A stretch of DNA of 64,000 bases from an uncultured Chlorobiaceae bacterium (GTDB lineage: Bacteria; Bacteroidota; Ignavibacteria; UBA10030; SZUA-254), in the NCBI GenBank assembly GCA_964520905.1, contig CAZFQL010000002.1, positions 134,450 to 198,449 of the forward strand, given 5' to 3'. The translations under genes were made by a program, and so were the position numbers. The notes beneath the pieces are model-generated. The model was not told where the DNA came from, did not search any database, and saw only the letters and a program-made list of their open reading frames with translations. Each line of letters starts with the position of its first letter. The first letter of the stretch is position 1. This document shows positions 29,490 to 47,236 of the stretch, piece after piece.

Positions 29490-30185
29490 GAAAAAAACTC
29501 TGTATTAGTTAGCTGATATCGTGACAACAGTTCTCATGATATTCTCTCATGCTTACTCCCAGATGGATTTAACAAAATATGCAAAAGTGACCCGTTGGAT
29601 ATCATTGGTTCATTCATTCTGGGCTTCAAAGGTAATTACTTCATACCTGACAGTTTACGAACCGGGCAGGGTTATTGGATTAAACTTAATCAACCAGGGG
29701 AACTCCTTTTGAGCGGAACTTATCCACCATTGCCAAAAACATCAGCTAATAAAATATTGTTGGGATTCAATACAATCACCATATGCGATGGAATAAATAA
29801 CTCCCAATCGCTGTACTTTGGTTCGGGTGAATTGTAAGGATTTACTCCCAGCTTCTTCAAACTGCCACCCAAGCCACCGTCAGGCAGTTTCGATGTAAGG
29901 TTCGGTTCTGGAAGAATGTTAGAATGCCTTGTAGATGTTCCAAACGAAAAATCTGAATACCAAATTTACATTCAGACTGAATCCAGTCCGATTAAAATAT
30001 GTTGTAATATGAAGCCGGAAGAAACTCGGAACTTCGTCATCCGGGATGAGTCAAGCAAGATTTATCCACTTGATAAAAATGGTAGTTTTGTACTCAACAA
30101 AGAAACATTAGAAATCAGAGTACTTACTCTGGCATCTGTGCTTACTCAAATCCTAAACTCGGATTTTTATTTATCACTATTATAA
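29490..30185 (+). pseudogene. Decayed gene for a secreted protein (signal peptide interrupted by a stop, then about 3 frame-shifted fragments)
   Basis: ATG-AAAAAAACTCTGTAT-TAG, followed in frame by LADIVTTVLMIFSHAYSQ, a classic signal peptide. Downstream fragments 29521..29712, 29595..29837 and 29916..30185 lie in different frames. Confidence 0.35.
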
Positions 30186-30390
30186 ATTATATTGTCAGTA
30201 TTGAGAATTCTATTAAAGTTGTAACCATAGCAAAGTTAAGTTTAAAGCCCGCAAATCTAAATGTAATCAATAAATTCACACTTTCTTATTTTAATTGTTT
30301 TCATTAATATTGGCATAATTTTAGAGTAAGATAGGCAGCCCGCTGAATTTATTGTTAAAATATTCTAACCCTTCTTGAAAGGAAAAGAAA

Positions 30391-30867
30391 ATGTCTGACA
30401 AAAGTCGTCGTGATTTTCTAAAAAAATCTTTAGCAATCGGGTCTGTGGCTACCGGACTTTCGACATCAACTTCAAAGGCGTCACCTAAGAATATTTTATC
30501 CGACGACAGGATGGGAGTTTTGGTTGACACAACTGTTTGTGTCGGCTGCCGTAATTGTGAGTGGGCTTGCAAAGATGCTCATAATTTACCTGCCGGTAAT
30601 TTAGATTCCTATGAAGACAGAAAAATTATAGAAACTAAAAGAAGACCTGATCAAACAGCACCCACAGTTGTTAATGAATATCCTCACGGTAAATATTCAA
30701 ATCTTCCCGTCGATGTGAAAGTACAGTGCATGCATTGCGATCACCCGGCTTGTGTCTCTGCTTCCATCGTGGACACTTTTTTAAACATCCTAACGAATTG
30801 GTTGACTGGCATTCAAAAAACCTTTCAGATAACCATGAAGATCATATTTTGTTTGATGACGAAGTAA
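30391..30867 (+). pseudogene. Truncated NrfC/HybA-like Tat-exported 4Fe-4S subunit (N-terminal remnant)
   Basis: Tat motif SRRDFLKKS and a first ferredoxin motif CVGCRNCEWAC. The second motif is degenerate (CMHCDHPACVSAS). After that the reading frame runs into unrelated sequence and stops. Collinear with the intact paralog 32750..33610. Confidence 0.5.
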
Positions 30868-30947
30868 GAAGTTATCCCTTGCTTCATTTAACTAAATTTG
30901 TATAATATTTCATTCAAAGATAAGTAATTAATGAAGGATAATTTAAA

Positions 30948-32114
30948 ATGATTGTATTAATTGTAATTCTTACGATTATTGTATTTGTGATTGTAGATTT
31001 TCTTTTACGAACACTGATGCAAAGAGTACAAAAAGTAAAATTAGAAAAAGAAAGGTCAGAAGCTCTTTATGTCGGATTAAGACTTGATTTTACAAGTGAA
31101 GCAAAATCCCTGAAACGCGTAGAAGTACAAAATCCAAAAGCCAAAATTCTGTGTGTTGATGATGAACCGGTAATTTTGGACAGCTTTAGGAAAATTCTAG
31201 TCGTTGATGGTTACTCTGTCGATACGGTGGAGACCGGGGCAGAAGTTCTTGGACTTATACAAAAACGAGACTATGATTTTGTTTTCACAGATCTTAAGAT
31301 GCCGGAAATGGATGGTGTGGATGTAACAAAAGCTGTGAAACATTTACGTCCCGATATTGATGTAATTGTAATTACCGGTTATGCAGCAGTCGAAACAGCC
31401 GTAGAAACCATGAAGTTTGGTGCTATGGATTATGTGCAAAAACCATTTACCGAAGGTGAATTAATTGAGTTTGTTAACAAATCTCTAATTAAGCGTCAGG
31501 AAAAAATTGAAAAACAGATGAAACCGACTGTACGATTAGTAACAGGTACGACAGCAGAATCTAGTTCGAAGCATGAATTCAATGTACCGGCAGGGGTTTT
31601 TATAGCCCATCAACACACATGGATAACAATTGAGATGAACGGCATAGTACGAATAGGAATTGATGATTTCATAAGAAAAATATTGAGAAAGATCGACGGA
31701 GTTGAGTTACCTAAAATTGGTAGTAAAATTAAGAAAGGAGATTTGTTGTTTACAATAAAACAGGAACATCAGTCATTCGATATTCCTTCTCCAATAAGCG
31801 GAAGAGTTATATCCGTAAATTCTGAACATGCAGAACACCCCGAGTGGATTGTGATAAAGCCCTTCGAGCTTAGCTGGATGTGTTTAATCGAACCTTCAAG
31901 TCTTTCTGAAGAATTACATTACTTAAAAATTGGACGTGAAACCATTGATTGGTACCAACAGGAAATAAATAAGTACAATGAGATTTTAAGAAAAGCTGAA
32001 AAAGAGAAAGAGCAAATTGAATCATCTGGCGAAGGAAATAATGCAGCAGAGAAAGAAAGGTTAGATAAGAAAATTTGGGGGGAGTTTTCGCAAACCTTTC
32101 TCAATAAAAAATAA
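30948..32114 (+). CDS. Membrane-anchored response regulator: N-terminal TM helix + CheY-like receiver + C-terminal GcvH-like (glycine cleavage H-protein fold) domain
   Basis: TM MIVLIVILTIIVFVIVDFLL. REC with DDE pocket, phospho-Asp (FTDLKMP), T (ITGY) and K (QKPF). C-terminal region HQHTWITIEMNGIVRIGIDDF...LPKIGSKIKKGDLLFTIKQ...SPISGRVISVN aligns with GcvH (HEW...G..T.GIT.HAQ..LGD...V.LP.VG..V..G......ESVKA.S.I.APVSG.I..VN). Confidence 0.8.
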   Translation: MIVLIVILTIIVFVIVDFLLRTLMQRVQKVKLEKERSEALYVGLRLDFTSEAKSLKRVEVQNPKAKILCVDDEPVILDSFRKILVVDGYSVDTVETGAEVLGLIQKRDYDFVFTDLKMPEMDGVDVTKAVKHLRPDIDVIVITGYAAVETAVETMKFGAMDYVQKPFTEGELIEFVNKSLIKRQEKIEKQMKPTVRLVTGTTAESSSKHEFNVPAGVFIAHQHTWITIEMNGIVRIGIDDFIRKILRKIDGVELPKIGSKIKKGDLLFTIKQEHQSFDIPSPISGRVISVNSEHAEHPEWIVIKPFELSWMCLIEPSSLSEELHYLKIGRETIDWYQQEINKYNEILRKAEKEKEQIESSGEGNNAAEKERLDKKIWGEFSQTFLNKK

Positions 32115-32168
32115 TAAATTTCAGGTAGTTATATTGTTTTTAAATTTAATATCTAAAATGAGGTAATT

Positions 32169-32705
32169 ATGATTAAATATCTTTTCATTGCGCAAACAAT
32201 ATTCCTTTTAATAGCTGGCGTTTTAAGTGCTCCATTTAAAAAAGGAACTGAATTAGGCAAAGTAGTAACTTCATACAGATCGGAAATAAACTCTACTTTA
32301 GCAACAAGTATCTCCAATGAGGACACCTTGCAAATACCATCTGAATTAAAAATACCCTCCTCTCTTGGGGAGGTTGTATTTCCTCATAAACTCCATCTGG
32401 AAGATTTGGAAATCAAATGTGTAGAGTGTCATCATCAACTTAATGCTAAAAAATTAAATACCCCACATCCAAATTATTTGAAGAATAGTTGCAGCAGTTG
32501 TCATGTTGAATCAGATAAGACCCATAAAAAAATTTATAATTGTACGGTATGCCATCGTTCTCACATTGCAAATATAGCTGACGAAATGCTAAGTAGAAAA
32601 GTAGCCATACATGAAAAATGCTGGCAGTGTCATGAGTCTGAAACAGGTAAGCAAGCAAGTGAAAATTGCGGGATGTGCCACAATGGTAAAAAAACAAAGT
32701 TTTAA
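32169..32705 (+). CDS. Periplasmic pentaheme cytochrome c, c3/c7 family
   Basis: Signal peptide and five CXXCH motifs (CVECH, CSSCH, CTVCH, CWQCH, CGMCH). VVFPHKLH matches the c7/c3 distal-His signature (PpcA VKFPHKAH). Confidence 0.85.
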   Translation: MIKYLFIAQTIFLLIAGVLSAPFKKGTELGKVVTSYRSEINSTLATSISNEDTLQIPSELKIPSSLGEVVFPHKLHLEDLEIKCVECHHQLNAKKLNTPHPNYLKNSCSSCHVESDKTHKKIYNCTVCHRSHIANIADEMLSRKVAIHEKCWQCHESETGKQASENCGMCHNGKKTKF

Positions 32706-32749
32706 TTTTATAATTCTTTTATATAGATTGCATTTCAATAGGAGTTACG

Positions 32750-33610
32750 ATGAACAGAAGAAATTTTATTAGAACAACAGCTACCATTAGTACAGCAGCT
32801 TTACCTCTGGGGAAATTAAATGCTCAGGAGAATAAAGAGAAAAAGGAATTTGTCGGAGTGCTGGTTGATACAACTAGATGCCTCGGATGTAGATTGTGTG
32901 AGGTTGCTTGTTCTGAAGAGCACGGCAATTATGTGCCAGACGTGAAAAATGATCATGCCCTTGAAAAAATTAGAGATACGAGTGAAAAACAGTGGACTGT
33001 TGTGAACAGATTTGAAACCAAAAACGGTGAAGTGTTCGTAAAAAGACAATGTATGCACTGCTGGCAACCAGCATGTACTGCAGCTTGCCTTACTAATGCA
33101 ATGTTTAAAACTAAAGAAGGACCGGTTACTTGGGATGGAGATAAATGTATGGGATGCAGATATTGCATGGTATCCTGCCCATTCGATATTCCCAAATTTG
33201 AATATAACAAATGGAATCCAAAAATCCAGAAATGCAATATGTGTTATGAAAGATTGCAAGAAGGTAAGAAACCAGCCTGTGTACAAGCTTGTCCAAAAGA
33301 TGCCTTATTATTCGGCATTAAAAGAGAACTCATGGAAGTGGCAAGACACCGTGTTTACAGTTATCCTGATAAATATGTCCATAAAATATATGGAGAACAT
33401 GAGGTAGGGGGAACCGGTTGGCTTTATCTTTCAGGAGTTCCGTTTGAGCAAATCGGATTTAGGACAGACCTTGGTACAACTCCATATCCTGAATATACAA
33501 AAGAATTCCTCTTTTCTGTTCCACTTGTTTTATTCGGTGTACCTGCACTATTGTTTGGCTTTAATTTGCTAACGGACAGGAAAAATGAAATAAATAAAAG
33601 GGAGAGATAG
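32750..33610 (+). CDS. Tat-exported 4Fe-4S ferredoxin-type subunit (NrfC/HybA/PsrB-like) with C-terminal TM anchor
   Basis: Tat signal MNRRNFIRTTA. Four Cys clusters: CLGCRLCEVAC, CMHCWQPACTAAC, CMGCRYCMVSCP and CNMCYERLQEGKKPACVQACP. C-terminal helix FLFSVPLVLFGVPALLFGF. Confidence 0.85.
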   Translation: MNRRNFIRTTATISTAALPLGKLNAQENKEKKEFVGVLVDTTRCLGCRLCEVACSEEHGNYVPDVKNDHALEKIRDTSEKQWTVVNRFETKNGEVFVKRQCMHCWQPACTAACLTNAMFKTKEGPVTWDGDKCMGCRYCMVSCPFDIPKFEYNKWNPKIQKCNMCYERLQEGKKPACVQACPKDALLFGIKRELMEVARHRVYSYPDKYVHKIYGEHEVGGTGWLYLSGVPFEQIGFRTDLGTTPYPEYTKEFLFSVPLVLFGVPALLFGFNLLTDRKNEINKRER

Positions 33611-33613
33611 AAA

Positions 33614-34813
33614 ATGATTAATACTGCAGTTTTCAGTGGTGAATTTAAAAGGTTTATTAAGTTTTTTATACAAGAATTAAAACCCCGAGGTAAATGGCTC
33701 ACACCATTTAATGTTATATCTATTCCAATTATACTTTTAGGTCTTGTAATCCTTTTCTTTCGGTTTACTCAGGGGCTTGGATCGGTTACTAATCTTTCTC
33801 AGCAATTTCCATGGGGATTCTGGATTGGGTTTGATGTTGTTACTGGTGTGGCTTTTGCTGGTGGTGCTTATGTTATCACTTTTGTCGTTTATGTAATGAG
33901 AGTTGATAAATATCATTCTATTGTTAGAGTAACAGTTTTAAACGGATTATTGGCTTACATTTTTTACGCTGGCGCATTGGTTTTGGATTTGGGAAGACCT
34001 TGGCATATAATTAATCCAATTATAGGCAACTCGTTTGGTTTTAACTCAGTATTATTTTTAGTCTCGTGGCATTTCATGCTTTACATGATTGCGGAGTTTG
34101 TTGAGTTTTCACCTGTAATCGCAGAATGGGCACATTGGGAGAAAATACGTAAATTTGTTACTGCACTTACTCTTGGAGCTGTCATATTCGGAATTTCACT
34201 TTCAATGTTACACCAGTCAGGTCTTGGCGCGCTCTTTTTAATGGCAAAGCCCAAAATACATCCGCTCTGGTATTCTGAATTTATTCCGATCCTATTTTTT
34301 GTGTCAAGCATTTTTGCCGGTTTATCAATGATAATTTTTGAAGGAACTATAAGCCACAAAGTTTTCAAAGATAAGATTGACCCCAAGAGTCATGGTACAT
34401 TTGATGATATAATTTTTGGTTTAGCAAAAGGGGCCGCCATTTCGATGTTTGTATATTATTTTTTTAAGGCACTTATCTTCATCCATGGAGAAGAATGGGT
34501 TCTTATAAATGATTTTTGGGGCTTCTGGTTCCTTTTAGAAGTGATTGGTTTTGTTCTGATTCCATGTTTTATGTTTGCCTATGGAGTAAAACACAGGAGT
34601 TTAGGTATTATACGAGTTGCATCTGTATTAACCTTAATTGGTATAATTCTCAATAGATTAAATATATCAATCATCACATTTAATTGGACTTCACAGGTAA
34701 GGTATTATCCATCCTGGCAAGAAATAGTAGTGACACTGATGGTTATATTCTCTGAGATTTGGGTCTTCCGATGGGTTGTTACAAGGATGCCTGTATTTCA
34801 GAAATCTCATTAG
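33614..34813 (+). CDS. NrfD/PsrC-family integral membrane quinol-interacting subunit
   Basis: 399 aa, polytopic. Starts 4 bp after the NrfC-like stop. Has the NrfD-family arrangement. Confidence 0.75.
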   Translation: MINTAVFSGEFKRFIKFFIQELKPRGKWLTPFNVISIPIILLGLVILFFRFTQGLGSVTNLSQQFPWGFWIGFDVVTGVAFAGGAYVITFVVYVMRVDKYHSIVRVTVLNGLLAYIFYAGALVLDLGRPWHIINPIIGNSFGFNSVLFLVSWHFMLYMIAEFVEFSPVIAEWAHWEKIRKFVTALTLGAVIFGISLSMLHQSGLGALFLMAKPKIHPLWYSEFIPILFFVSSIFAGLSMIIFEGTISHKVFKDKIDPKSHGTFDDIIFGLAKGAAISMFVYYFFKALIFIHGEEWVLINDFWGFWFLLEVIGFVLIPCFMFAYGVKHRSLGIIRVASVLTLIGIILNRLNISIITFNWTSQVRYYPSWQEIVVTLMVIFSEIWVFRWVVTRMPVFQKSH

Positions 34814-34848
34814 CATAAAATATTCTTTAAAATATAATGGATTAAAAA

Positions 34849-34980
34849 ATGGAAACATATACATACGTAAACATCTTTGAAACAAAAGGACTGGAATATC
34901 TTTTATTAATTTGTTTTCTTGTACTTTTTGTGCTGTTAGTCCGATATCTATCCCCTACGAATAAAAAAAACAGAGACTAG
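34849..34980 (+). CDS. Small single-TM protein (43 aa), possible accessory subunit
   Basis: METYTYVNIFETKGLEYLLLICFLVLFVLLVRYLSPTNKKNRD lies 35 bp after nrfD-like. No strong RBS. Below the size cutoff of the ORF track. Confidence 0.25.
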   Translation: METYTYVNIFETKGLEYLLLICFLVLFVLLVRYLSPTNKKNRD

Positions 34981-35343
34981 AGAATTGACATATAATTGAA
35001 TATCTATTCCGGCTCAGATACTTGTAGCGGATAAAATACAAAATCTCGGTAATTTTGGATGATATTAAATAACGGACGAATTTCTATAAAAGATAAAAAA
35101 ACACGGCTCTGTGTCGTTTTATATAGGTAAAACAATGATTAAATTAGAAAGATGATTAGCTAAGAATTATTAAATGATAATTAACTACACGTAATGATGA
35201 TAAGGAAGATTTGCATCAAGATTTGAATTTTAGTACAGAGCAAGCTTGCAATAATTGTCATGATGATTACTGTTTTCCAAAGCAAAAACCAGGAAAGTTA
35301 GTTGGTAAATAATTAAATTTGAATTGAATAATAATTTCGTAAT

Positions 35344-37215
35344 ATGCTTTTTAAGAAGATTGGTTTTCGGTTAATATTTGCTGTTGCATTAACATCGCTT
35401 GTAATAATTGGCGTGTTTGCGTACTTCAATATCAAATCGCAGAGCAGCAGCTTGATATCTGAAGTTGAGCGACACGCAAACCAGCTTGGTGAAACCGTTA
35501 TATCAAGTACACGTTTTGATATGATGTTAAATCAAAGAGATAGAATTCAACAGACGATTAATTCAATTGGAACGCAGCCGCAAATAAGAGATGTGAGAAT
35601 TATAAATAAAATCGGTGAGATTATTTATTCATCCGATTCTAAAAACATCAATAAAATGGTTGATAAGCGTGCTGAGAGTTGTTATGCCTGCCACTCGGAA
35701 GATCAACCTTTAGAGCAGATATCTATCACCGAGCGAACCCGAATATTCAAGATTCATCCAGACTCCAACCGTGTTCTTGGAATAATTACCCCGATTTACA
35801 ACGAAACATCGTGCTGGCAGGCAAAATGCCACGCGCATCCACAAAATCAAAAAGTTCTCGGTGTACTGGATGTTTCTATATCTCTTGCAGAGGTTGATAA
35901 AGCGATTATTACACGAGAATGGGAAATTGTGATCTTTGCAATCGTTGCAATAATCACTGTCGGATTATTAATAGCTTTCTTCGTAAGGCGCTGGGTATCT
36001 AATCCCGTTAATGATTTATTAAATGCGACACAACAGGTTAGTCAGGGTAATTTGAATTATGCCATTAAAGATCTCAGCGATGATGAAATAGGGAAACTTG
36101 GTTCTTCATTTAACAATATGACAAAGAAACTTGCAGAAGCACGCATGCAGCTTTTTCAATCGGATAAAATGGCTTCGCTCGGGCGGCTTGCTGCAGGTGT
36201 TGCACACGAAATAAATAACCCTCTTACTGGAGTTCTTACATACAGCAGTTTTCTTTTAAAAAGAACAAAGAATAATCCCGAACTTCAAGAAGATCTGAAT
36301 ATTATTGTCAGAGAAACTATACGAAGCCGGGAAATTGTAAAAAGCTTATTAGATTTTGCACGTCAATCAGTTCCCAGAAAAAGCAGTGCAAGTATAAATG
36401 AAATTATTGACAAAGCAATCATTGTGGTTGAAAAACAGTTGTCGTTCAAAAAAATAAAAATTATAAGACAGTCGGAAAATAAACTTCCCCAAATAACTGT
36501 CGATTCAAATCAAATTCAGCAAGTATTCATTAATCTTTTTGTAAATGCTTCAGATGCAATTGGCAAAGACGGCGGAACAATAACAATAGTTAAAAAACAA
36601 ATTTCTCTTTCCCCATTTGGAGTTGCTCAAATAAAGAAAGCATCATGTCCAAAACGTCATAGTCTAATTGATAATGATTTTAAGATTGACGGACTACCAG
36701 CATTGAAAGTGAAAGTGGTTTCTGCCGGTAAGGAGGGAATAATTCATCTTGATCCAGTTTACGGGAAACATCGTAACTATTATTATCCTGATGTTAAAAT
36801 AGATAAAGACACAAAATTTGTTTGTCCAGATTGCGATACATCTCTTGTTCAACTGGACAAATTCTGCCCCAAATGTGGTGCACCTGCTCTTGCATTCGAG
36901 ATCAACGGACAGGGTGTTTACGAAGTATGCTCTTCCGAAAACAGTAACTGGGAGAAATGGGATTTTATTGACTCTTCAGGATTAAAAGATTATATAGAAA
37001 TAAAAATCAGCGACACGGGTTGCGGAATAAGTAAAGATGATCTTCAAAAAATCTTTGAGCCATTTTTCTCAACCAAAGGACAAAAAGGTACCGGACTTGG
37101 TTTGGCTGTTATCTGGGGAATAATTGATAATCATAACGGAACAATAAACGTTGAAAGCGAGGAAGGAAAGGGTACAACTTTCGTTGTCCGACTTCCTCTT
37201 ACGCAGCAGAAGTAA
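35344..37215 (+). CDS. Sensor histidine kinase with c-type-heme-binding periplasmic domain (TM-periplasmic-TM-HAMP-HisKA-HATPase_c with zinc-ribbon insertion)
   Basis: TM1 at about 8-28 and TM2 IVIFAIVAIITVGLLIAFFV. The periplasmic segment carries CYACH (CXXCH) and CWQAKCH (CX4CH). H-box is AHEINNPL, N-box NLFVNASDA, G-box DTGCGI...GTGLGL. A roughly 120 aa insert between N and G1 contains CPDCD-x11-CPKCG. Confidence 0.85.
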   Translation: MLFKKIGFRLIFAVALTSLVIIGVFAYFNIKSQSSSLISEVERHANQLGETVISSTRFDMMLNQRDRIQQTINSIGTQPQIRDVRIINKIGEIIYSSDSKNINKMVDKRAESCYACHSEDQPLEQISITERTRIFKIHPDSNRVLGIITPIYNETSCWQAKCHAHPQNQKVLGVLDVSISLAEVDKAIITREWEIVIFAIVAIITVGLLIAFFVRRWVSNPVNDLLNATQQVSQGNLNYAIKDLSDDEIGKLGSSFNNMTKKLAEARMQLFQSDKMASLGRLAAGVAHEINNPLTGVLTYSSFLLKRTKNNPELQEDLNIIVRETIRSREIVKSLLDFARQSVPRKSSASINEIIDKAIIVVEKQLSFKKIKIIRQSENKLPQITVDSNQIQQVFINLFVNASDAIGKDGGTITIVKKQISLSPFGVAQIKKASCPKRHSLIDNDFKIDGLPALKVKVVSAGKEGIIHLDPVYGKHRNYYYPDVKIDKDTKFVCPDCDTSLVQLDKFCPKCGAPALAFEINGQGVYEVCSSENSNWEKWDFIDSSGLKDYIEIKISDTGCGISKDDLQKIFEPFFSTKGQKGTGLGLAVIWGIIDNHNGTINVESEEGKGTTFVVRLPLTQQK

Positions 37216-37224
37216 CTTTAATGT

Positions 37225-38043
37225 ATGAGTAAAACAGCAAACATATTGGTTATTGATGATGAGAAGGTAATAATAGATGGAGTAGTTAAAATCTGCTCAC
37301 TCGAAAATTACTCAATTGATGTTGCTTTAAATATAAAAACAGCCATTGAAAAGATCTCAAAAAAATATTACTCAGTTATTATCTGCGATATTATGATGCC
37401 CGATGGTGATGGTTTCCAGGTTTTAAATGAGCTTCAAACGAGAAATATAGACAGTGCTTTAATAATGATGACAGGTTATTCGACTGTAGAAAACGCTGTT
37501 AATTCACTTTACCGGGGTGCGATAGATTTTATTCCCAAACCATTTACGGTTGACGAGTTGCTGAGTTCAATTTATCGCGCAAACAAATATCAGCAAATTA
37601 AAGAAAAGCAAAAACAATCCTCAAGAGATAATCATAAAGTTGAACTATTTTACGTTGAATGTCCGTCAAAATATTATCGCCTCGGTCGTTCAAGCTGGTT
37701 GTTTGAAGAAAGAGACGGTTCAGTTTTAATAGGTGTTTGCGATTTTTTTCTTTCAACGATTGATTCAATAACGGAAATCGAATTTCTTGAGCTTGAAGAA
37801 GAAATTGCACAAGGCATTAGCTGCCTTACAATCAAATCAAGCGATGAGAGAATACATAAAATTCATTCTCCCGTTTCAGGCAGAATAATTGATGTGAATA
37901 AAAATCTTAAATTAGTTTCTAATCTGATCGAAAAAGATCCGTACTTTGAAGGATGGGTATATCGCGTTATACCTCATGACCTTGGTTATGAAATTAAAAA
38001 TTTGGTTCCTTGCAGTTCAGATAGAATGCAGATTCGTACTTAA
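37225..38043 (+). CDS. Response regulator: receiver domain + GcvH-like C-terminal domain (soluble)
   Basis: REC with ILVIDDEKV, ICDIMMPDGDG, MMTGY and PKPF. C-terminus YYRLGRSSWLFEERDGSVLIGVCDF...CLTIKSSDERIHKIHSPVSGRIIDVNKNLKLVSNLIEKDPYFEGWVYRVIP aligns with GcvH, including PY.GW. Starts 10 bp after the kinase. Confidence 0.8.
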   Translation: MSKTANILVIDDEKVIIDGVVKICSLENYSIDVALNIKTAIEKISKKYYSVIICDIMMPDGDGFQVLNELQTRNIDSALIMMTGYSTVENAVNSLYRGAIDFIPKPFTVDELLSSIYRANKYQQIKEKQKQSSRDNHKVELFYVECPSKYYRLGRSSWLFEERDGSVLIGVCDFFLSTIDSITEIEFLELEEEIAQGISCLTIKSSDERIHKIHSPVSGRIIDVNKNLKLVSNLIEKDPYFEGWVYRVIPHDLGYEIKNLVPCSSDRMQIRT

Positions 38044-38079
38044 CAAGAGTTCAATAAATTATTTTTTAGGAGAAACGTC

Positions 38080-39243
38080 ATGGCATTATTAATACTAGCA
38101 GTAATTATATTCATCATTGCGGATATCTTAATCCGGATGATCAGCAAGCGCTTAACTGAAAATAAGTTAAAGAAAGAACGTGAAAGTGCATTGCAGGAAA
38201 GTCTTAAGTTAGATTTTACCAGCGAAGCAAAAACATTAAAACGTGCTGAAGTCCAAAATCCAAAAGCCAAAATCCTTTGTGTTGATGATGAAGAAGTTAT
38301 TCTTGGCAGCTTCAGAAAAATTCTTGTGCTTGATGGTTACGCTATAGATACTGTAGAAACAGGTCAGGAAGCTCTTGGTTTGATACAGAAGCATCATTAT
38401 GATTTTGTTTTTACAGATCTTAAAATGCCGCTTATGGATGGAGTTGAAGTGACAAAATCAGTAAAGCATTTACGCCCCGATATAGATGTAATTATTATTA
38501 CCGGTTATGCTTCTGTGGAAACTGCCGTTGAAACAATGAAATACGGTGCAATGGATTATGTTCAAAAGCCTTTCACTGAAGACGAGCTTCTGGCATTTGT
38601 GAAGAAAATATTAATTAAAAGACAGGATAAAATTCAAAAACAGCTTAAACCAAAAGTGCATATCACTCATCTTCCAGCATCGCACGATTTTATTAAAGGT
38701 GAATTTTCAATCCCTGGCGGTGTGTTCATATCTAAGAATCATACGTGGTTTAGCATCAATCAAGAAGGAATTGCCAAAATTGGTATAGATGACTTTGCTA
38801 AAAAACTAATTGGTAAAATAGATTCGATTGAACTTCCAAATCTTGGGATGAACGTAAAAGCCGGTCAGCCCTTATTTACGGTAAAACAAGGAGACAGAAG
38901 TGTTGCTTTTAATTCTCCCATTACCGGAAAAGTATCACAGATAAATACCGTTTTGCTGAGAAATCTTGTGGCACTGGAACTGAGTTCTTATGAAAGAAAT
39001 TGGATTTGCGCTCTCGATACCGATAAAATAGATGACGAAATTAAAGGAATGTGCATCGGTAAATCTGCTGTTGCTCTATTCCAGAATGATATTGAAAAGT
39101 GCAAAATTTTATTGAAAGATCTATTGAAATCCGAAAAACGCGAAGGTGAGTATATTGAAGAAGGTCAGATTTACATCGGGCAGCTTGAAGAACTTTCTGA
39201 TGTGAATTGGCAGAAAGTAGTCGCGGAATTTTTTAGAAGATAA
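38080..39243 (+). CDS. Membrane-anchored response regulator: TM + receiver + GcvH-like domain (close paralog of 30948..32114)
   Basis: The receiver domain is nearly identical at protein level and clearly similar at DNA level to 30948..32114. C-terminus NHTWFSINQEGIAKIGIDDFAKKLIGKIDSIELPNLGMNVKAGQPLFTVKQ...SPITGKVSQIN...YERNWI is GcvH-like. Confidence 0.8.
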   Translation: MALLILAVIIFIIADILIRMISKRLTENKLKKERESALQESLKLDFTSEAKTLKRAEVQNPKAKILCVDDEEVILGSFRKILVLDGYAIDTVETGQEALGLIQKHHYDFVFTDLKMPLMDGVEVTKSVKHLRPDIDVIIITGYASVETAVETMKYGAMDYVQKPFTEDELLAFVKKILIKRQDKIQKQLKPKVHITHLPASHDFIKGEFSIPGGVFISKNHTWFSINQEGIAKIGIDDFAKKLIGKIDSIELPNLGMNVKAGQPLFTVKQGDRSVAFNSPITGKVSQINTVLLRNLVALELSSYERNWICALDTDKIDDEIKGMCIGKSAVALFQNDIEKCKILLKDLLKSEKREGEYIEEGQIYIGQLEELSDVNWQKVVAEFFRR

Positions 39244-39273
39244 AAACAATTTTACTCCTATCCGCTTAAATAA

Positions 39274-39312
39274 CCTTCAAGGTCGCAGTTAAAGACCTTG
39301 AGGGTTTTTTGT
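39274..39312 (+). terminator. Rho-independent terminator ending the kinase/regulator operon
   Basis: 11 bp stem ccttcaaggtc-gcagttaaa-gaccttgaggg followed by TTTTTT. Confidence 0.75.
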
Positions 39313-39927
39313 TATTATTATAAATAATATTCTTCTCGCACAATTCCTGTAGATTCCAACTATTATGAATATCAAAAAAAAATCGTTGTCTATGTATATC
39401 TTTATATTCAAATTCTACGTTTATTTTAGACGAAGCATAACTTGATGGAATAGCGGCAATTGTTCCAATTCACCACCCCTCTAAACAATTCTATGGATTA
39501 GAATCAAATCACACCTTAATGCTAGAACGTTTGGAGAAAGAAATTATCCACAAACTCTGTCATATTTTCGAATTGATACACTGCCATCAGTTTGAGTGCA
39601 CGATGCGTTCGTCAACTTATGTCGAGGAGATCGACTTGAAACAGCACCTGCCCTGTTCATCTTGCCGGCGAATTCTGCGGGACAAAGTCAATCGTTTATA
39701 CCGCGAAGTCGGTATCGGTAAGAATGCTGTGAAATGAGTATTAAGACATAAATATCTCAAATCTGCAAAAATCCCTCTTTTTGCTTTCATTATTGATAAC
39801 TTTTTGCCTAAAATCCAGCATTAAATTCCATTATTTTATCGAAATGAAAAGATAAATTGATGGAATGATTCTTGTAATAATTAGCACCGATAACATTTAA
39901 CTTCACATCATCTGACGAAATATAATT

Positions 39928-42900
39928 ATGGATACAAAAAAAAATCGCACAATGGTAACAATCGACGGTAACGAAGCCGCCGCTTACGTTGCGCATAAAT
40001 TAAACGAAGTAATTGCAATTTACCCGATTACCCCGTCATCCCCCATGGGTGAATGGTCAGATGAATGGTCTGCACTCGGAAGAAAAAATTTATGGGGAAC
40101 GATTCCCCATGTGATCGAGATGCAAAGCGAAGGCGGAGCTGCCGGTGCTGTACATGGCGCACTTCAAACAGGCGCACTTTCAACTACATTCACATCGGCA
40201 CAGGGACTTCTCTTAATGATCCCAAATATGTTTAAGATTGCCGGCGAGCTTACACCCACAGTTTTCCATATTGCGGCGCGAACCGTTGCCACTCATGCCC
40301 TTTCGATATTCGGCGAGCATAGCGATGTTTACGCTGCCCGATCTACAGGTTTTGCTATGCTTGCATCCAATTCGATTCAAGAAATTATGGATTTCGCCCT
40401 CATCTCACAAGCGGCAACTCTGGAAGCGCGGGTACCATTCATGCATTTCTTCGATGGTTTTCGATCTTCACATGAAGTTATGAAAATTGAGCAGCTCGAT
40501 GAAAGCGATATGCGCACGATGATAGATGATGAATTGATTCGTGCACACCGTAAGCGCTCAATGTCGCCGGAACATCCTGTCCTTCGCGGCACTGCACAAA
40601 ATCCGGATGTATATTTTCAGGCTCGCGAGACTGTAAATCCATTTTACGACGCTTGCCCTGGTATCGTTCAAAAAGTGATGGATAAATTTGAAAAAGTTGT
40701 TGGAAGAAAATATAAACTCTTTCAGTATTTCGGCGCTCCTGATGCAGATCGAATTATAATAATGATGGGATCCGGGGCTGAAACAGCACAAGAAACAGTT
40801 GAATATCTGAATGCCCGCGGTGAAAAAATCGGTCTGCTCAAAGTACGTCTCTATAGGCCCTTCTCTGTCGAACACTTTCTGAATGAAATACCGAAAACTG
40901 TTAAGACTATTGTCGTGCTGGACCGGACGAAAGAACCGGGCGCAACGGCTGAACCACTGCACCTCGATGTCATTACAGCAATTAGCGAAGCCTTCACAAA
41001 CGGGAAACTTCCCTTGCAATCTTATCCCCGTATAATTGGCGGACGGTATGGACTTTCATCGAAGGAATTCACTCCGGCTATGGTCAAGGGTGTATTTGAT
41101 GAATCAAAAAAATCGCAACCGAAAAATCATTTCACTATCGGCATACTCGACGACATCACAAAAACCAGCCTTGATTACGATCCGTCTTTCACCACGGAAC
41201 CGGATGATGTTGTTCGTGCCATTTTCTATGGTTTAGGGGCTGATGGCACAGTAAGCGCAAATAAAAACTCAATCAAAATTATCGGTGAAGACACGGAGTT
41301 TTTTGCCCAGGGATATTTTGTATACGATTCAAAGAAATCGGGTTCAACCACAACATCGCACTTGCGCTTCGGTCCACGTCCGATACATTCTACTTATTTG
41401 ATAGATAAGGCAAGCTTCATGGCATGCCATCAATGGTTCTTCCTTGAAAAATATGATGTTTTAAGATCTGCAATCTCCGGAGCTACATTTCTGCTGAACA
41501 GTCTCTACGGTCCCGAAGAAGTATGGGGAAAACTTCCGCGCCACATTCAGAAAGAAATTATTGAGAAGCGTATAAAATTTTATGTGATCGATGCATACAA
41601 AGTCGCGCGCCAGACCGGCATGGGCGGCAGAATCAATACGATCATGCAAACCTGTTTCTTTGCGATCTCGGGCGTATTACCGAAAGACGAAGCGATAGCG
41701 GCTATAAAAAAATCGATAGAAAAAACATACGGCAAGAAAGGCGCCGATATCGTAACGCAAAACTTCGAGGCTGTCGATCTGACTCTTGCTAATCTCTTCC
41801 AGGTAAAAATTCCGAATAACGTCACCAGCACCGTTGAAATGCCGCCTACTGTCTCAGAGAAAGCTCCAAGCTATGTACGGGAAGTTCTGGCAAAAATTAT
41901 CACTAACGATGGAGACAACCTGCCCGTGAGTACAATGCCGGTGGATGGAACATTTCCAACGGCGACTGCACAATGGGAAAAGAGAAATATCGCACTAGAG
42001 ATTCCAACATGGGAAGCAGAAATCTGTATCCAATGCAATAAATGTGTAATGGTCTGCCCACATGCCACTATACGAGCCAAGGTTTATGATCCAAAAGAAT
42101 TGGCAAATGCACCTTCAACATTTAAGTCGATCGACTTCAAAGGCGTAGAATACAAAGGAATGAAATATACGATTCAAATTGCGCCGGAAGATTGCACCGA
42201 GTGCGGGTTGTGTGTGGACGTCTGCCCTGCAAAGAGTAAGTCGGAAGCAAAGGTTAAAGCAATCAATATGAAACCGCAACCTCCGATTCGTGAATCAGAA
42301 CGCGCCAATTATGATTTCTTCCTTGCAATACCGGAAATCGATAGGCGCACAGTTAAAGTTGATACAATCAAAGGGTCTCAATTCCTCCAACCATTGTTTG
42401 AATACTCCGGTGCCTGTGCCGGATGCGGTGAAACACCCTATGTGAAACTTGTAAGTCAACTCTTTGGCGACCGGGCAATCATTGCTAACGCAACCGGATG
42501 TTCATCGATCTATGGAGGCAATCTTCCAACTACGCCATGGAGTATAAACAACGACGGTCGCGGACCGACATGGTCTAATTCGCTGTTTGAAGACAATGCG
42601 GAATTCGGTTTGGGGATGCGTTTAACAGTCGATAAACATACCGAAATGGCAAAAGAATTAGCGCTAAAGCTTTCTAATGAGATCGGCGATAAGCTCGTCA
42701 ATGATATAATGAATGCCGATCAATCGAATGAAGCCGGAATTTATGATCAGCGAGAACGCGTAAAACTGCTGAAAGAAAAAATTAGTACCGTAAATACTCC
42801 CGAAGCAAAAAGTTTACTGAGTATCTGCGACAATCTCGTGAAGCGCAGTATCTGGATAATCGGCGGTGACGGTTGGGCATACGATATAGGTTATGGCGGA

Positions 42901-43506
42901 CTCGATCATGTGATTGCATCTGGGAAGAATGTGAATATCCTTGTTTTGGATACCGAAGTTTACTCAAACACTGGTGGACAGATGTCGAAAGCGACAGCCC
43001 GCTCTGCAATAGCAAAGTTCGCCGCTAACGGTAAACCTACGGCGAAGAAAGATCTCGGCATGCTCGCTATGGCATATGGTAATGTGTACGTTGCATCTGT
43101 AGCAATGGGGTCGAACGATTTACAAACACTTCGCGCTTTTCTGGAAGCTGAGGCATACGATGGACCATCAATTATTATTGCCTATAGTCACTGCATTGCC
43201 CACGGAATCAATATGACTAAGGGAATGCAGAACCAGAAATTAGCGGTAGACACCGGTTATTGGTCTTTGTACCGTTACAATCCGATGTTAGTGAAAGAAG
43301 GGAAAAACCCGCTTAAACTCGATTCGAAAGAACCGAAATTGCCGCTAAAAGAATTTACATCGATGGAAACGCGATTCAAAATGTTAGAAAAGAGTTATCC
43401 AGAGCGTGCAAAGGCACTCGGGGTTCTTGCGCAAAACGATGTAAATGCGCGATGGAAAATATATGAGCATCTTGCTCAAGATGGAAATTCGGAAAATAAA
43501 AAATAA
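39928..43506 (+). CDS. nifJ: Pyruvate:ferredoxin (flavodoxin) oxidoreductase, single-polypeptide PFOR
   Basis: 1192 aa. N-terminal TIDGNEAAAYVAHKLNEVIAIYPITPSSPMGEW. Two ferredoxin motifs (CIQCNKCVMVCPH, CTECGLCVDVCP). TPP domain GGDGWAYDIGYGGLDH. Confidence 0.95.
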   Translation: MDTKKNRTMVTIDGNEAAAYVAHKLNEVIAIYPITPSSPMGEWSDEWSALGRKNLWGTIPHVIEMQSEGGAAGAVHGALQTGALSTTFTSAQGLLLMIPNMFKIAGELTPTVFHIAARTVATHALSIFGEHSDVYAARSTGFAMLASNSIQEIMDFALISQAATLEARVPFMHFFDGFRSSHEVMKIEQLDESDMRTMIDDELIRAHRKRSMSPEHPVLRGTAQNPDVYFQARETVNPFYDACPGIVQKVMDKFEKVVGRKYKLFQYFGAPDADRIIIMMGSGAETAQETVEYLNARGEKIGLLKVRLYRPFSVEHFLNEIPKTVKTIVVLDRTKEPGATAEPLHLDVITAISEAFTNGKLPLQSYPRIIGGRYGLSSKEFTPAMVKGVFDESKKSQPKNHFTIGILDDITKTSLDYDPSFTTEPDDVVRAIFYGLGADGTVSANKNSIKIIGEDTEFFAQGYFVYDSKKSGSTTTSHLRFGPRPIHSTYLIDKASFMACHQWFFLEKYDVLRSAISGATFLLNSLYGPEEVWGKLPRHIQKEIIEKRIKFYVIDAYKVARQTGMGGRINTIMQTCFFAISGVLPKDEAIAAIKKSIEKTYGKKGADIVTQNFEAVDLTLANLFQVKIPNNVTSTVEMPPTVSEKAPSYVREVLAKIITNDGDNLPVSTMPVDGTFPTATAQWEKRNIALEIPTWEAEICIQCNKCVMVCPHATIRAKVYDPKELANAPSTFKSIDFKGVEYKGMKYTIQIAPEDCTECGLCVDVCPAKSKSEAKVKAINMKPQPPIRESERANYDFFLAIPEIDRRTVKVDTIKGSQFLQPLFEYSGACAGCGETPYVKLVSQLFGDRAIIANATGCSSIYGGNLPTTPWSINNDGRGPTWSNSLFEDNAEFGLGMRLTVDKHTEMAKELALKLSNEIGDKLVNDIMNADQSNEAGIYDQRERVKLLKEKISTVNTPEAKSLLSICDNLVKRSIWIIGGDGWAYDIGYGGLDHVIASGKNVNILVLDTEVYSNTGGQMSKATARSAIAKFAANGKPTAKKDLGMLAMAYGNVYVASVAMGSNDLQTLRAFLEAEAYDGPSIIIAYSHCIAHGINMTKGMQNQKLAVDTGYWSLYRYNPMLVKEGKNPLKLDSKEPKLPLKEFTSMETRFKMLEKSYPERAKALGVLAQNDVNARWKIYEHLAQDGNSENKK

Positions 43507-43609
43507 TTTATTCAAAAATAGGCGGTGTTTTATCTTTCTACAAAATCAACACAAAAGCGCCAACTGTTGACTAAATTGAAATCAAAAATCTAAATAACCG
43601 GAAAAAATT

Positions 43610-44599
43610 ATGGATATTACAACATCATATCTCGGACTGAAATTAAAAAATCCTATCGTTCCCTCCGCTTCACCGTTGTCGTACACTTTAGAAAGCATGA
43701 AGCAACTCGAGGATGCCGGTGCTTCGGCGATAGTAATGTTTTCGCTATTTGAAGAACAGATTGTTCATGAAACATCGGAACTTCTGCATTACCTTTCACA
43801 GGGGACAGAAAGTTATGCTGAAGCACTTTCGTACTTTCCGGATGTTCAACAATATAATCTGGGCCCTGATGAATATATCGATTTGATCTATAAAGCAAAG
43901 AAATCTTTGGAAATTCCGGTCATTGGAAGTTTGAACGGAGCATCGGTCGGCGGCTGGATTAATTATGCGAAGAAAATTGAGGAAGCCGGCGCCGATGCGC
44001 TCGAATTGAATATCTATTATATCCCGACCGATCCTTCACTTTCGGGAAGCGAGATCGAAAACCGGTATCTCAAAGTTCTCAAGATGGTTAAGAGCACAAT
44101 AAAAATACCCGTGGCAGTAAAAATAAGTCCTTTCTTCAGCGGGTTATCACATATGGCACAACAGTTGGATAAAGAAGGCGCAAATGGATTGGTTCTTTTT
44201 AACAGATTTTATCAACCCGATATAGACCTTGAGACAATGGAAGTTAGGCCAAGCGTTATACTCAGTACTCCACAGGCGATGCGATTACCGCTCCGGTGGA
44301 TCGCAATTCTTTACAATAAAGTGAAAGCAAATCTTGCCGCAACGAGCGGCATTCACACTGCTGAAGATGTTTTGAAGATGCTGATGGCTGGCGCAGATGT
44401 TACAATGATGTGTTCTGCAATCTTAAAGCATGGTCCCGAACATATTAAAAATGTTCTTCGGGATATGGAGCGCTGGATGACTGATAATGAATATGTTTCT
44501 GTAACGCAGATGAAAGGAAGCATGAGCCAAAAATCTATCGCTGACCCGACAGCTTTTGAGCGTGCAAACTATATGAAATCGCTTCACAGTTATAAATAA
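43610..44599 (+). CDS. Dihydroorotate dehydrogenase-family TIM-barrel protein (DHOD-like; catalytic Cys motif not conserved)
   Basis: [16 protein letters not shown] and overall class-1 DHOD/DPD-like layout. The expected N(L/I)SCPN region reads LNIYYIPTD. Confidence 0.55.
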
Positions 44600-44660
44600 T
44601 CATTTTTGCTTTTTCATTGGAATAGCTGTAATTTAAGACTATATTATCTGAAATAAAACT

Positions 44661-45098
44661 ATGAGTATTATATTCAGCCGGCAATGTGAGTATGCTATCC
44701 AAGCAGTGCTCTACCTTGCCTTGAATTCTAACGGTAAGATGATCTCGATTCGAGAACTAACGAATAAATTGGATATTCCTTATCATTTTGTGGCAAAGAT
44801 ACTTCAAGACCTTACGCGCAAAGGTCTTCTCGTTTCTCACAAAGGTCCATCCGGCGGTTTTTCTTTAGGAACGCCCGCAAAAGATATTACTCTGCTTGAA
44901 ATCGTTGAAGCAATCGACGGTTCAGGGTTCATGGATAATTGTGTATTCGGTTTTCCATCTTGTACCTGTAATAACCCTTGCGCTGTTCATGAACAATGGG
45001 ATAAGGTCCGAAATAGTATCCATAAGATGCTTGCAACGAAAAGTATTTTAGAAATGGCTGGGGAAACAAAGAAACCTCAATATCAAATAAAAGAATGA
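44661..45098 (+). CDS. Rrf2-family transcriptional regulator (IscR/NsrR-like, Cys ligands present)
   Basis: N-terminal wHTH. Cys cluster CVFGFPSCTCNNPCAVH in the usual position. Confidence 0.8.
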   Translation: MSIIFSRQCEYAIQAVLYLALNSNGKMISIRELTNKLDIPYHFVAKILQDLTRKGLLVSHKGPSGGFSLGTPAKDITLLEIVEAIDGSGFMDNCVFGFPSCTCNNPCAVHEQWDKVRNSIHKMLATKSILEMAGETKKPQYQIKE

Positions 45099-45154
45099 TA
45101 CACCAAAAATTTTTTGTATTATAATCGGATAAATTAGTCTGAATATATTATCGT

Positions 45155-46393: not shown

Positions 46394-46429
46394 AAAATTA
46401 AAATAATTGGAAAGATTGGAATAATATTT

Positions 46430-47236
46430 ATGGTTAAAAGAAAAATAATTAAAATTGATGAATCGCTTTGCGATGGATGTGCTCTTTGCATACCTTCCTG
46501 CCCAGAAGGTGCGCTGCAAATCATCGACGGCAAAGCAAGACTGGTAAAAGAAAGTTTCTGCGATGGACTTGGTGCTTGCCTGGGTGACTGCCCTCAGGGC
46601 GCTCTCATAATCGTTGAAGCCGAAACCGAGCAATATGACGAACCCGGCGTGATTGAACATATTAAAACAAATGCCCCGGAAAAACTTCATTCGCACATCG
46701 AACATATGAATCAACATAAAAATGAAATGAGCGGACATTCACAACAATCGCATTTCGGCGGTTGTCCATCTTCACGTATGATGCAATTTGGAGAGCCATC
46801 ACACGCGGAGCCAACGGCACGTGTTTCTTCACAACTTCGTCAGTGGCCCATTCAACTTCATCTTGTTCCGCCAACAGCGCCATATTTCCAGAATGCAAAT
46901 ATTTTCTTAGTTGCCGATTGCGTTCCATTTGCATATGCCAATTTTCATTCCGATATTTTAGCTGGAAATGCAATCGCTATTGCATGCCCCAAGCTTGATG
47001 ATGTTAGTGAATATGTTGATAAGGTAACACAAATATTCAGAAATTCTACACCAAAGAGTATAACAGTTGCTATCATGGAAGTACCATGCTGTTCAGGTTT
47101 AGTACAGATTGCACGTCAAGCCGCAATCAATGCAGAACTGAACCTGCCGATTGAAGTTATCGTGATCGGAATTAGGGGGAATCTGATCTCAAAACGGACA
47201 ATCCAAGATCAAGTGGAAAGTATTCAACGTGAGTAA
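46430..47236 (+). CDS. 4Fe-4S ferredoxin-domain protein with C-terminal Cys-containing domain of unknown function
   Basis: N-terminal CDGCALCIPSCP and CDGLGACLGDCP. Downstream Cys residues include a PCCSG motif. Confidence 0.5.
   Translation: MVKRKIIKIDESLCDGCALCIPSCPEGALQIIDGKARLVKESFCDGLGACLGDCPQGALIIVEAETEQYDEPGVIEHIKTNAPEKLHSHIEHMNQHKNEMSGHSQQSHFGGCPSSRMMQFGEPSHAEPTARVSSQLRQWPIQLHLVPPTAPYFQNANIFLVADCVPFAYANFHSDILAGNAIAIACPKLDDVSEYVDKVTQIFRNSTPKSITVAIMEVPCCSGLVQIARQAAINAELNLPIEVIVIGIRGNLISKRTIQDQVESIQRE

Follow-up and report, generated by a model that had tools for sequence, protein, structure and literature searches.

Three response regulators encoded beside a small respiratory membrane module use a GcvH-like domain without the lipoyl-lysine as their output, which is a new output-domain variant of response regulators. 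They lie, together with a sensor kinase, in a stretch of 64,000 nucleotides from an uncultured Chlorobiaceae bacterium (the window). Our main reading, to which we assign a probability of about 45%, is a two-component system without a transcription-factor output that is wired to the respiratory membrane module: a heme-redox kinase would act through docking regulators that tune electron flow. To our knowledge, almost all response regulators studied so far act on DNA, c-di-GMP or motors. If the reading is true, the locus would be a candidate case of a two-component system controlling a respiratory complex directly and post-translationally.

The three open reading frames reported in the initial annotation are all present on the forward strand, at 30948..32114 (RR1), 37225..38043 (RR2) and 38080..39243 (RR3). 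RR1 (388 aa) consists of a TM helix (aa 1-27), an amphipathic helix, a receiver domain (REC, aa 64-185), the lysine-less GcvH-like domain (aa 212-326) and a two-helix C-extension (aa 327-388), as delimited by Pfam, AF2, Foldseek, hydropathy, CheY residue mapping and the hairpin register. Based on Pfam and hydropathy, RR3 (387 aa), which travels with the kinase and RR2, likewise has a TM helix, a REC, a lysine-less GcvH-like domain and a two-helix C-extension, and RR2 (272 aa) is a soluble protein of REC and lysine-less GcvH-like domain, with neither TM helix nor C-extension. Pfam Response_reg matched all three proteins (E 4e-25 to 1e-30), and the equivalents of CheY D12, D13, D57, T87 and K109 are retained in each, in agreement with the claim that the phospho-acceptor residues are kept. 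Two of the copies had also been described as membrane-anchored; the N-terminal helix (aa 1-27) is indeed strongly hydrophobic in RR1 (KD19 3.4) and RR3 (KD19 2.9), and hydropathy revealed no such helix in RR2. This tethering helix is conserved in sequence and contains a conserved Asp, which suggests a specific intramembrane contact. The AF2 model of RR1 reached a pLDDT of 87 with uncertain inter-domain geometry (pTM 0.55), and the C-extension gave neither a structural nor a Pfam match.

In profile searches with Pfam and NCBIfam, none of the three regulators showed a DNA-binding domain or an enzymatic one. The NCBIfam models for NtrC, AtoC and ZraR matched only the REC part. Receivers of the NtrC/NtrX/NtrC1 type are the closest in both structure and sequence, and the model resembles that group in the long alpha5-linker helix that connects the receiver to the output domain. 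In contrast to NtrC-type proteins, the regulators lack the AAA+ (Sigma54_activat) and HTH_8 domains in Pfam, carry a GcvH-like output instead, and two of the three are membrane-anchored. RR1 and RR3 are much closer in the REC (83% amino acid and 76% DNA identity) than in the GcvH-like domain (38%) or the C-extension (29%), and the DNA string that had been cited as an example of this similarity matches at 39/42 nt. Compared with the RR3 RECs of this lineage, the RR1 REC is 83-86% identical. Judged from these alignments, such identity is what would be expected if the resident kinase serves both proteins. The proposal of a shared kinase with diversified outputs thus fits, the highly conserved REC being combined with two ancient GcvH-like (GcvHL) orthogroups.

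A kinase of the cognate HAMP-HisKA-HATPase_c type is encoded nearby on the same strand (35344..37215). According to Pfam, it consists of a TM helix, a periplasmic domain with the motifs CYACH and CWQAKCH, a second TM helix, HAMP, HisKA and a HATPase_c domain that is split by a Zn-ribbon insert of ~120 aa. The heme-type CxxCH and Cx4CH motifs of the periplasmic domain have a fixed spacing, and of 51 homologues, with identities as low as 27%, nearly all keep them. When the insert and the sensor domain were searched against PDB sequences, no match was significant (for the sensor domain, E 0.27 to the Geobacter heme-PAS sensor 3b42).

The fold of the output domain is truly that of GcvH, as seen in the profile match, the AF2 model and Foldseek. 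Pfam GCV_H (PF01597) matched all three regulators with E 2e-16 to 2e-19 and 58-70 bits, compared with a gathering score of 22.2. What did not hold is the lysine. The initial annotation had placed a Lys at the lipoyl-lysine position, but the residue facing K64 of E. coli GcvH is H274 in RR1, E in RR2 and D in RR3; the ungapped HMMER alignment to E. coli GcvH, the MAFFT alignments and counting from the invariant SPxSG motif all agree on this register. The Lys that had been named lies three residues upstream of the lipoyl column (four in RR2). In the RR1 model it is part of the beta-strand 266-272, and E273-H274 form the tip of the hairpin. Since the lipoyl column holds H, E or D here and never Lys in 65 relatives, lipoylation of these domains appears very unlikely, and we rejected a lipoylated output domain on the basis of hairpin register and conservation.

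The lysine also decides how the idea of a lipoylated or biotinylated swinging arm, which would provide a lipoylation- or redox-dependent signalling step, is to be judged. Apart from the significant GCV_H matches, this idea could draw on a weak match to Biotin_lipoyl (PF00364; 15.3 bits, below the threshold of 22.1, and with no Lys at the tip) and on the Lys near the hairpin that occurs in about half of the family. However, this nearby Lys lies within its strand and is not conserved (33/65), in the wider family a position one residue from the tip alternates between Lys and Arg, and the scores for the NCBIfam GcvH equivalogs reach only about half of the cut-off (TIGR00527: 62 bits vs 115.85; NF002270: 58-70 bits vs 117). 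With the lipoyl-Lys missing family-wide, swinging-arm chemistry is extremely improbable. In work by Wallis and Perham from 1994, shifting the Lys of a lipoyl domain by one position reportedly abolished lipoylation. The cavity that normally shelters the lipoamide arm in GcvH might instead bind a free small ligand (fatty acyl, quinone or lipoate-like), making the domain a ligand sensor or carrier; the hairpin residues are variable (D/S/T/N/H), which speaks against it, and we regard this as decidedly unlikely.

While fold and profile are shared with GcvH, the differences are considerable. GcvH is a stand-alone protein of ~130 aa with the lipoyl-lysine at the tip of the beta-hairpin (E/S-V-K-A/S) and is found in the context of gcvT/gcvP, whereas the regulators (272-388 aa) are lysine-less, fused to a REC, equipped in RR1 and RR3 with a TM anchor and the two-helix C-extension, and located in a respiratory context. 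The GcvH-L of Streptococcus pyogenes, which is linked to SirTM, is both lipoylated and ADP-ribosylated; it differs from the regulators described here in its Lys, which they lack, and in its gene context.

The respiratory context is a compact gene block in the order RR1-cytochrome-FeS-NrfD-small ORF, all on the forward strand. The gene at 32169..32705 encodes a c3/c7-type cytochrome c of 178 aa, membrane-anchored or secreted, with five CxxCH motifs counted in the translation; it matched Pfam Cytochrome_C7 and Cytochrom_CIII, and the NCBIfam TmcA, c7 and HmcA-like models matched it at scores that are all below their cut-offs. It is followed by an HmcB/HybA-like four-cluster FeS protein (32750..33610; Fer4_11; HmcB 332.5 bits with a cut-off of 420, HybA 219 bits), which is predicted to be Tat-exported by its RRNF twin-arginine motif and has a C-terminal TM helix (hydrophobic aa 251-275). 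The third subunit is an HmcC/HybB-like integral membrane protein of the quinone-interacting NrfD family (33614..34813; Pfam NrfD; HmcC 401.6 bits with a cut-off of 550). The block ends with a conserved single-TM protein of 43 aa (34849..34980), of which 65-85% identical copies follow NrfD in L001-L007 and L018. This small protein corresponds, as a separate gene product, to the 'type B' N-terminal anchor to which the GcvH-like domain is attached in Bacteroidia-type loci, and an N-terminal motif is common to it and to the TM-GcvHL proteins in 12 loci.

The module resembles the Desulfovibrio Hmc complex (HmcABCDEF) in having a c3-type cytochrome and a receiver-domain gene close by (rrf1/rrf2 downstream of hmc), and HmcB and HmcC are the best-scoring families for the FeS and NrfD subunits, yet below the equivalog cut-offs. 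In contrast to Hmc, the cytochrome has five hemes and not sixteen as in HmcA, HmcD/E/F are missing, and no cytochrome b or HdrD-like genes were found between 30 and 40 kb of the window. Rrf1 (DVU_0530) affects the regulation of the hmc operon and is treated in the only paper found on it as a CheY-like single-domain regulator rather than a GcvH fusion (bioRxiv 10.64898/2026.06.30.735679); we therefore discarded it as a REC-GcvH protein. Compared by description only, Cbc4 of Geobacter sulfurreducens (CbcS/CbcT/CbcU), which has been proposed to act as a quinol:cytochrome c oxidoreductase, has the same composition: an integral membrane subunit, an FeS protein with four clusters and a small multiheme cytochrome anchored in the membrane. 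Its CbcS was put in the NapC/NirT family, unlike the cytochrome here, which matches c7/c3 models, and no GcvH-like partner was reported (bioRxiv 10.1101/2025.04.14.648717). The GcvHL regulators offer a handle on such small FeS-NrfD(-cytochrome) modules, whose role is unknown in the way that this preprint states for Cbc4.

Synteny gives strong support to the suggested link with the adjacent quinol:cytochrome module. In nearly all cases GcvHL genes adjoin an HmcB/HmcC-like FeS–NrfD pair, and an NrfD gene lies within 5 kb in 39/48 GcvHL loci. When 58 loci were chosen by REC similarity alone, the 2x2 table of GcvHL and NrfD read 17/4/1/36 (Fisher p 5e-10), the loci not being phylogenetically independent. 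The order HK-RR2-RR3 is conserved, with the FeS-NrfD pair, in >12 loci of different phyla, and the exact cassette occurs also in L001, L006, L007 and L018. An unfused TM-GcvHL gene is located directly upstream of FeS-NrfD in L012 and L015, and the type B anchor, whether or not it bears a GcvHL domain, directly downstream of NrfD. L058 contains the cytochrome-FeS-NrfD-small ORF module and a kinase without any GcvHL gene, and four loci have GcvHL without NrfD, indicating that the link is strong, not obligate.

The proteins with a REC fusion form a minority branch within a larger family that is tethered to the membrane and comprises 138 clusters at E<=1e-30 with the architectures TM–GcvHL, periplasmic domain–TM–GcvHL and TM–REC–GcvHL. 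In other lineages the REC-less domain occurs either in a TM-anchored protein or at the cytoplasmic end of proteins whose periplasmic domain is large; for the periplasmic domain of one such protein of 565 aa, the PDB sequence search returned non-significant matches only. The architecture had been noted as one not recognised as characterised. It is uncharacterised: full-text searching for REC/GcvH/NrfD combinations found nothing relevant, and database names are generic or wrong. Rare it is not: the profile matches at least 831 clusters (90% identity), the MAGs that carry it belong to many phyla, and every homologue seen is of MAG or metagenome origin. The archaeal census of Galperin 2018 does not mention GcvH. 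Our analysis corrects a recurrent annotation error, the name 'glycine cleavage system H lipoate-binding protein'.

The usual membrane tethering and the almost constant gene adjacency to an Hmc-like module suggest that the GcvHL family probably links redox sensing to the module and not to transcription. The kinase would bind c-type heme, read the periplasmic or quinone-linked redox state and phosphorylate all three REC domains. Phosphorylation may then alter the contact between the GcvH-like domain, which would serve for protein-protein docking rather than carry a cofactor, and a membrane partner, most likely the cytoplasmic face of the NrfD/FeS/small-TM complex, so that electron flow between the quinone pool and periplasmic cytochromes would be tuned post-translationally. 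RR1 would be the module-linked regulator, with a REC inserted between TM anchor and GcvH-like domain, and RR2 and RR3 the kinase-linked ones. Phosphorylation-controlled docking, which had already been considered, is the best mechanistic idea that we infer. A more general proposal is doubtful: that the lysine-less GcvH-like plus helical-hairpin domain represents an unrecognised class of membrane-tethered regulatory subunits for NrfD-type quinone modules, here under phosphorylation control, with a heme-sensing kinase gating electron flow via three docking regulators and no transcriptional output. If true, a widespread membrane-tethered, cofactor-less GcvH-fold output tied to an Hmc/Cbc4-like quinone module would constitute a new output class.

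Instead of binding the complex, the GcvH-like plus helical unit could be a signalling adaptor whose target is the kinase or a distant transcription factor, as in a three-component or connector system, with the respiratory genes as the regulated target. The ~560-aa proteins, in which a single TM helix joins a large periplasmic domain to a cytoplasmic GcvHL, resemble co-sensors, and the Zn-ribbon insert, found only in kinases followed by RR2-RR3, might serve for docking. Kinases of this type stand next to an NtrC-type sigma-54 activator in Bacteroidia-type loci. This makes the ancestral circuit a transcriptional one, a point against our main reading, and the GcvHL proteins of those loci might act as co-sensors or as partners of the kinase. 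However, the cassette in the window has neither a transcription factor nor a sigma-54 promoter match, GcvHL genes bracket FeS-NrfD and not the kinase, and the type B anchor is retained downstream of NrfD as a small membrane protein in its own right, which makes the adaptor somewhat unlikely. The tight gene order, small intergenic gaps and conserved TM anchors would suit structural or chaperone-like assembly subunits of the FeS-NrfD complex, the REC fusion merely timing assembly. This is rather unlikely, because the L058 module exists without GcvHL, RR2 is soluble, and three paralogues with diverged outputs and fully competent RECs point to switching rather than scaffolding.

Across the window, 25 sigma-54 promoter matches compared with 25.6 expected, none of them in the intergenic regions of the cassette; the sigma-70 promoter scan (49 vs 42.5 +/- 6.5 in shuffles) and the terminator scan (11 vs 5.6 +/- 2.6) were not clearly above shuffles. 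A functional link to the adjacent PFOR (39928-43506) was treated as coincidental, because only the window, L003-L005 and L083 have PFOR or POR genes in the vicinity, and the closest relatives, L012 and L015, have none within 10 kb downstream. Two gene remnants on the forward strand flank the block. The one at 30361..30867 keeps the 5' part of an ancestral FeS gene; it covers the first ~140 aa, breaks off near 30775, shows 78-84% identity in tblastx to the intact genes of L012 and L015 and matches NCBIfam HmcB at positions 1-125 only. An ORF at 35211..35312, immediately before the kinase gene, encodes the last 33 aa of an ancestral multiheme cytochrome, matching the end of the 380-aa cytochrome of L015 (6012-7154). 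Read from these remnants, an older FeS-NrfD-multiheme cytochrome module has been swapped for another and HK-RR2-RR3 stayed put.

The response regulators RR1 (30948..32114), RR2 (37225..38043) and RR3 (38080..39243), all on the forward strand, were present as open reading frames exactly where the initial annotation had placed three fusions of a receiver (REC) to a domain resembling the glycine-cleavage H-protein GcvH. Pfam matched Response_reg in each (E 4e-25 to 1e-30), and the GCV_H model reached 58-70 bits at a gathering score of 22.2. In NCBIfam, NtrC/AtoC/FixJ-type receivers ranked first for the N-terminal half, and GcvH models matched the C-terminal half with roughly half the score that their cut-offs demand. 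All three receivers are competent and, as had been claimed, keep the equivalents of CheY D12, D13, D57, T87 and K109; a DNA-binding domain was found in none of the three. The proposed membrane anchoring of two copies applies to RR1 and RR3, where a strongly hydrophobic N-terminal helix is followed by basic residues; RR2 lacks this helix. RR1 and RR3 are indeed closer in the receiver (83% identity) than in the GcvH-like domain (38%), and the string quoted for similarity at the DNA level agrees at 39 of 42 nt.

The assignment of a conserved lysine to the lipoyl-lysine position did not hold, as this residue sits three residues upstream of the lipoyl column, which is occupied by H in RR1, E in RR2 and D in RR3. 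Escherichia coli GcvH K64 ('ESVKAAS') aligns with RR1 H274 ('KQEHQSF') without gaps across the hairpin using HMMER, MAFFT gave the same result, and so did a residue count running N-terminally from the invariant SPxSG proline. Among 65 family members, the lipoyl column contains D (33), S (19), T (3), N (3), E (2), A (2), R (2) or H (1) and in no case Lys, and the column originally proposed carries Lys in only 33 of them. In the predicted structure of RR1, K271 lies within a strand (266-272) and E273-H274 form the hairpin tip. When the wider family is considered, G, D or N predominates in the tip column, with Lys and Arg alternating one residue later. Arginine cannot be lipoylated. The hairpin register, the 0/65 count for Lys and the Lys/Arg alternation together make a lipoyl carrier very unlikely; the output domain is a cofactor-less GcvH fold.

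A word-indexed search queried with the C-terminal region returned 68 metagenomic relatives, mostly REC + GCV_H. With a profile built to include non-REC forms, clusters matching at E<=1e-10 numbered at least 831. The best 120 of these are nearly all REC + GCV_H proteins of about 387 aa from MAGs, including Ignavibacteriaceae, KSB1, Deferribacteres, Beta- and Gammaproteobacteria, Brocadiaceae and Bacteroidetes, and bear generic or wrong names. When 1.84 billion representatives were scanned exhaustively with HMMER, 138 clusters reached E<=1e-30, in three length classes (~230, ~560 and 345-425 aa). ORF-level analysis of 85 fetched loci resolved four architectures: a TM helix with the GcvH-like domain and a C-terminal extension, lacking REC; a ~330-aa periplasmic domain, one TM helix, the GcvH-like domain and the extension; TM-REC-GcvH-like with the extension, as in RR1 and RR3; and a soluble REC-GcvH-like form, as in RR2. 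The extension consists of two helices with a 'W..F...FL' motif at its end, is kept family-wide and had no match in Pfam or among structures. REC fusions make up a minor branch of this larger membrane-tethered family, which is undescribed, widespread and so far seen only in MAGs and metagenomes.

Proteins of the ~560-aa class (L071, 3439-5136; also loci L054, L063, L065, L067, L070, L072 and L076) have a signal peptide, the ~330-aa periplasmic domain, for which Pfam and PDB gave no match, one TM helix and a cytoplasmic GcvH-like domain with extension; their genes lie directly upstream of FeS-NrfD. Two delta-proteobacterial MAGs encode ~300-aa GcvH-like proteins with the extension and a Cys-containing N-terminus (L051, 12372-13277 (-); L080, 11966-12859 (-)). 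Both proteins share a C.W..AGVI motif, the one from L080 has an additional Cys, and neither gene has NrfD nearby. L080 has two more genes of the family without this N-terminus. In the 1391-aa protein P0184, the GcvH-like profile matches three stretches.

The membrane anchors are of two kinds. Type A, compared between the window (30948-31030, 38080-38160) and loci L012, L015, L035, L045 and L069, is common to RR1, RR3 and unfused TM-GcvH-like proteins and carries a conserved Asp within the helix (..F[IV]xxD[IL]xxR), which is unusual for a passive anchor. In L015, an 86-aa ORF (2953-3213 (-)) with a type A-like anchor (MLTFLLILILVFIGVDLLVRF) and no GcvH-like domain adjoins a TM-GcvH-like gene. 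The 43-aa single-TM ORF following NrfD in the window (34849-34980) is 65-85% identical to small post-NrfD ORFs elsewhere. Its 'YTYxNIFETKGxEYL' N-terminus and TM segment match the anchor (type B) of a GcvH-like protein in 12 loci, and in Bacteroidia-type loci its N-terminal segment (MDGFTYHNIFETKGIEYL...PFW) anchors TM-GcvH-like proteins of ~240 aa. This sequence relationship suggests gene fission or fusion.

The adjacent module comprises a cytochrome (32169..32705), an FeS protein (32750..33610) and NrfD (33614..34813). The FeS subunit, with a twin-arginine signal and a C-terminal TM helix, best matched HmcB in NCBIfam (332 bits, cut-off 420), followed by HybA; NrfD best matched HmcC (402 bits, cut-off 550), followed by HybB. 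The cytochrome, 178 aa long and with five CxxCH motifs, matched c7/c3/TmcA models below their cut-offs. In subunit composition the module is similar to Cbc4 of Geobacter, a complex without an assigned role (bioRxiv 10.1101/2025.04.14.648717).

The suspected link between the regulators and this quinol:cytochrome module was reinforced by gene neighbourhoods. The full order RR1, cytochrome, FeS, NrfD, small ORF, kinase, RR2, RR3 recurs in L001, L006 and L018; L007 keeps it through the kinase, with RR2 upstream of RR1 and RR3 not found. In Ignavibacteriales, Melioribacteraceae, Bacteroidota and Caldithrix MAGs, the kinase-RR2-RR3 triplet stands beside a more distant FeS-NrfD pair. Bacteroidia-type loci run periplasmic-TM-GcvH-like or TM-GcvH-like, FeS, NrfD, type B anchor-GcvH-like fusion, kinase and an NtrC-type sigma-54 activator. 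NrfD lies within 5 kb of a GcvH-like gene in 39 of 48 loci bearing one, and for 58 loci retrieved via REC similarity alone, which are not phylogenetically independent, the GcvH-like/NrfD table (17/4/1/36) gave a Fisher p of 5e-10.

The sensor domain of the histidine kinase (35344-37215, forward strand) carries CYACH and CWQAKCH (aa ~113-163). Of 51 kinase homologues, nearly all have CxxCH and Cx4CH (Cx3CH in one) with the spacing fixed, and the heme-type motifs persist in Bacteroidia kinases at ~27% identity. This conservation makes the domain a likely di-heme redox sensor; the one pointer from the PDB was a non-significant match to a Geobacter heme-PAS sensor. HATPase_c is interrupted by a Zn-ribbon insert of ~120 aa (aa ~426-547 in this kinase); such inserts are present in kinases followed by RR2-RR3, which are the longer ones.

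Membrane tethers and heme-type motifs are conserved, and the linkage to FeS-NrfD is tight and repeated. We propose that the kinase would receive a periplasmic redox signal and phosphorylate the three regulators, whose GcvH-like domains may then dock on and modulate a partner in the membrane, with the NrfD complex as the likeliest candidate. Under the main rival explanation, the GcvH-like unit is a signalling adaptor acting on the kinase or on a transcription factor, a reading favoured by the periplasmic-TM-GcvH-like architecture and by the NtrC-type regulator in Bacteroidia loci. The literature searched contains no description of REC-GcvH proteins, in line with the initial annotation, or of GcvH-like partners of NrfD modules. 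In a preprint (bioRxiv 10.64898/2026.06.30.735679), Rrf1, which adjoins the hmc operon of Desulfovibrio, figures as a receiver with a single domain. We class REC-GcvH-like proteins as response regulators with a new variant of output domain.

The locus also retains traces of its history. ORF 30361-30867 corresponds to the first ~140 residues of an FeS gene (78-84% identity, break near 30775), and a 33-aa ORF (35211-35312) to the C-terminus of a 380-aa multiheme cytochrome whose gene precedes the kinase in L015; the closest relatives, L012 and L015, retain intact copies of both genes. These remnants flank the block from RR1 to the small ORF and indicate that a foreign block replaced an ancestral FeS-NrfD-multiheme cytochrome module of similar function, with kinase, RR2 and RR3 kept in place. 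GC content is ~0.35 across 30001-40000, which includes both the inserted block and kinase-RR2-RR3, versus 0.40-0.45 in the flanks; GC skew turns positive over the same interval. The GcvH-like domains of RR1 and RR3 type share 54-78% identity within and 31-43% between types and form ancient orthogroups. The REC of RR1 shares 83-86% identity with Ignavibacterial RR3 RECs versus 75-81% with RR1 orthologues, and in L018 the RR1 and RR3 RECs are only 65% identical; this pattern fits an RR1 receiver adapted or converted to the resident kinase.

Downstream (39928-47993) lie genes for a pyruvate:ferredoxin oxidoreductase (1192 aa), whose adjacency is not kept in the closest relatives, a DHO_dh-family protein, a Fer4_5-type FeS protein, another ferredoxin-like protein and a SAM methyltransferase.
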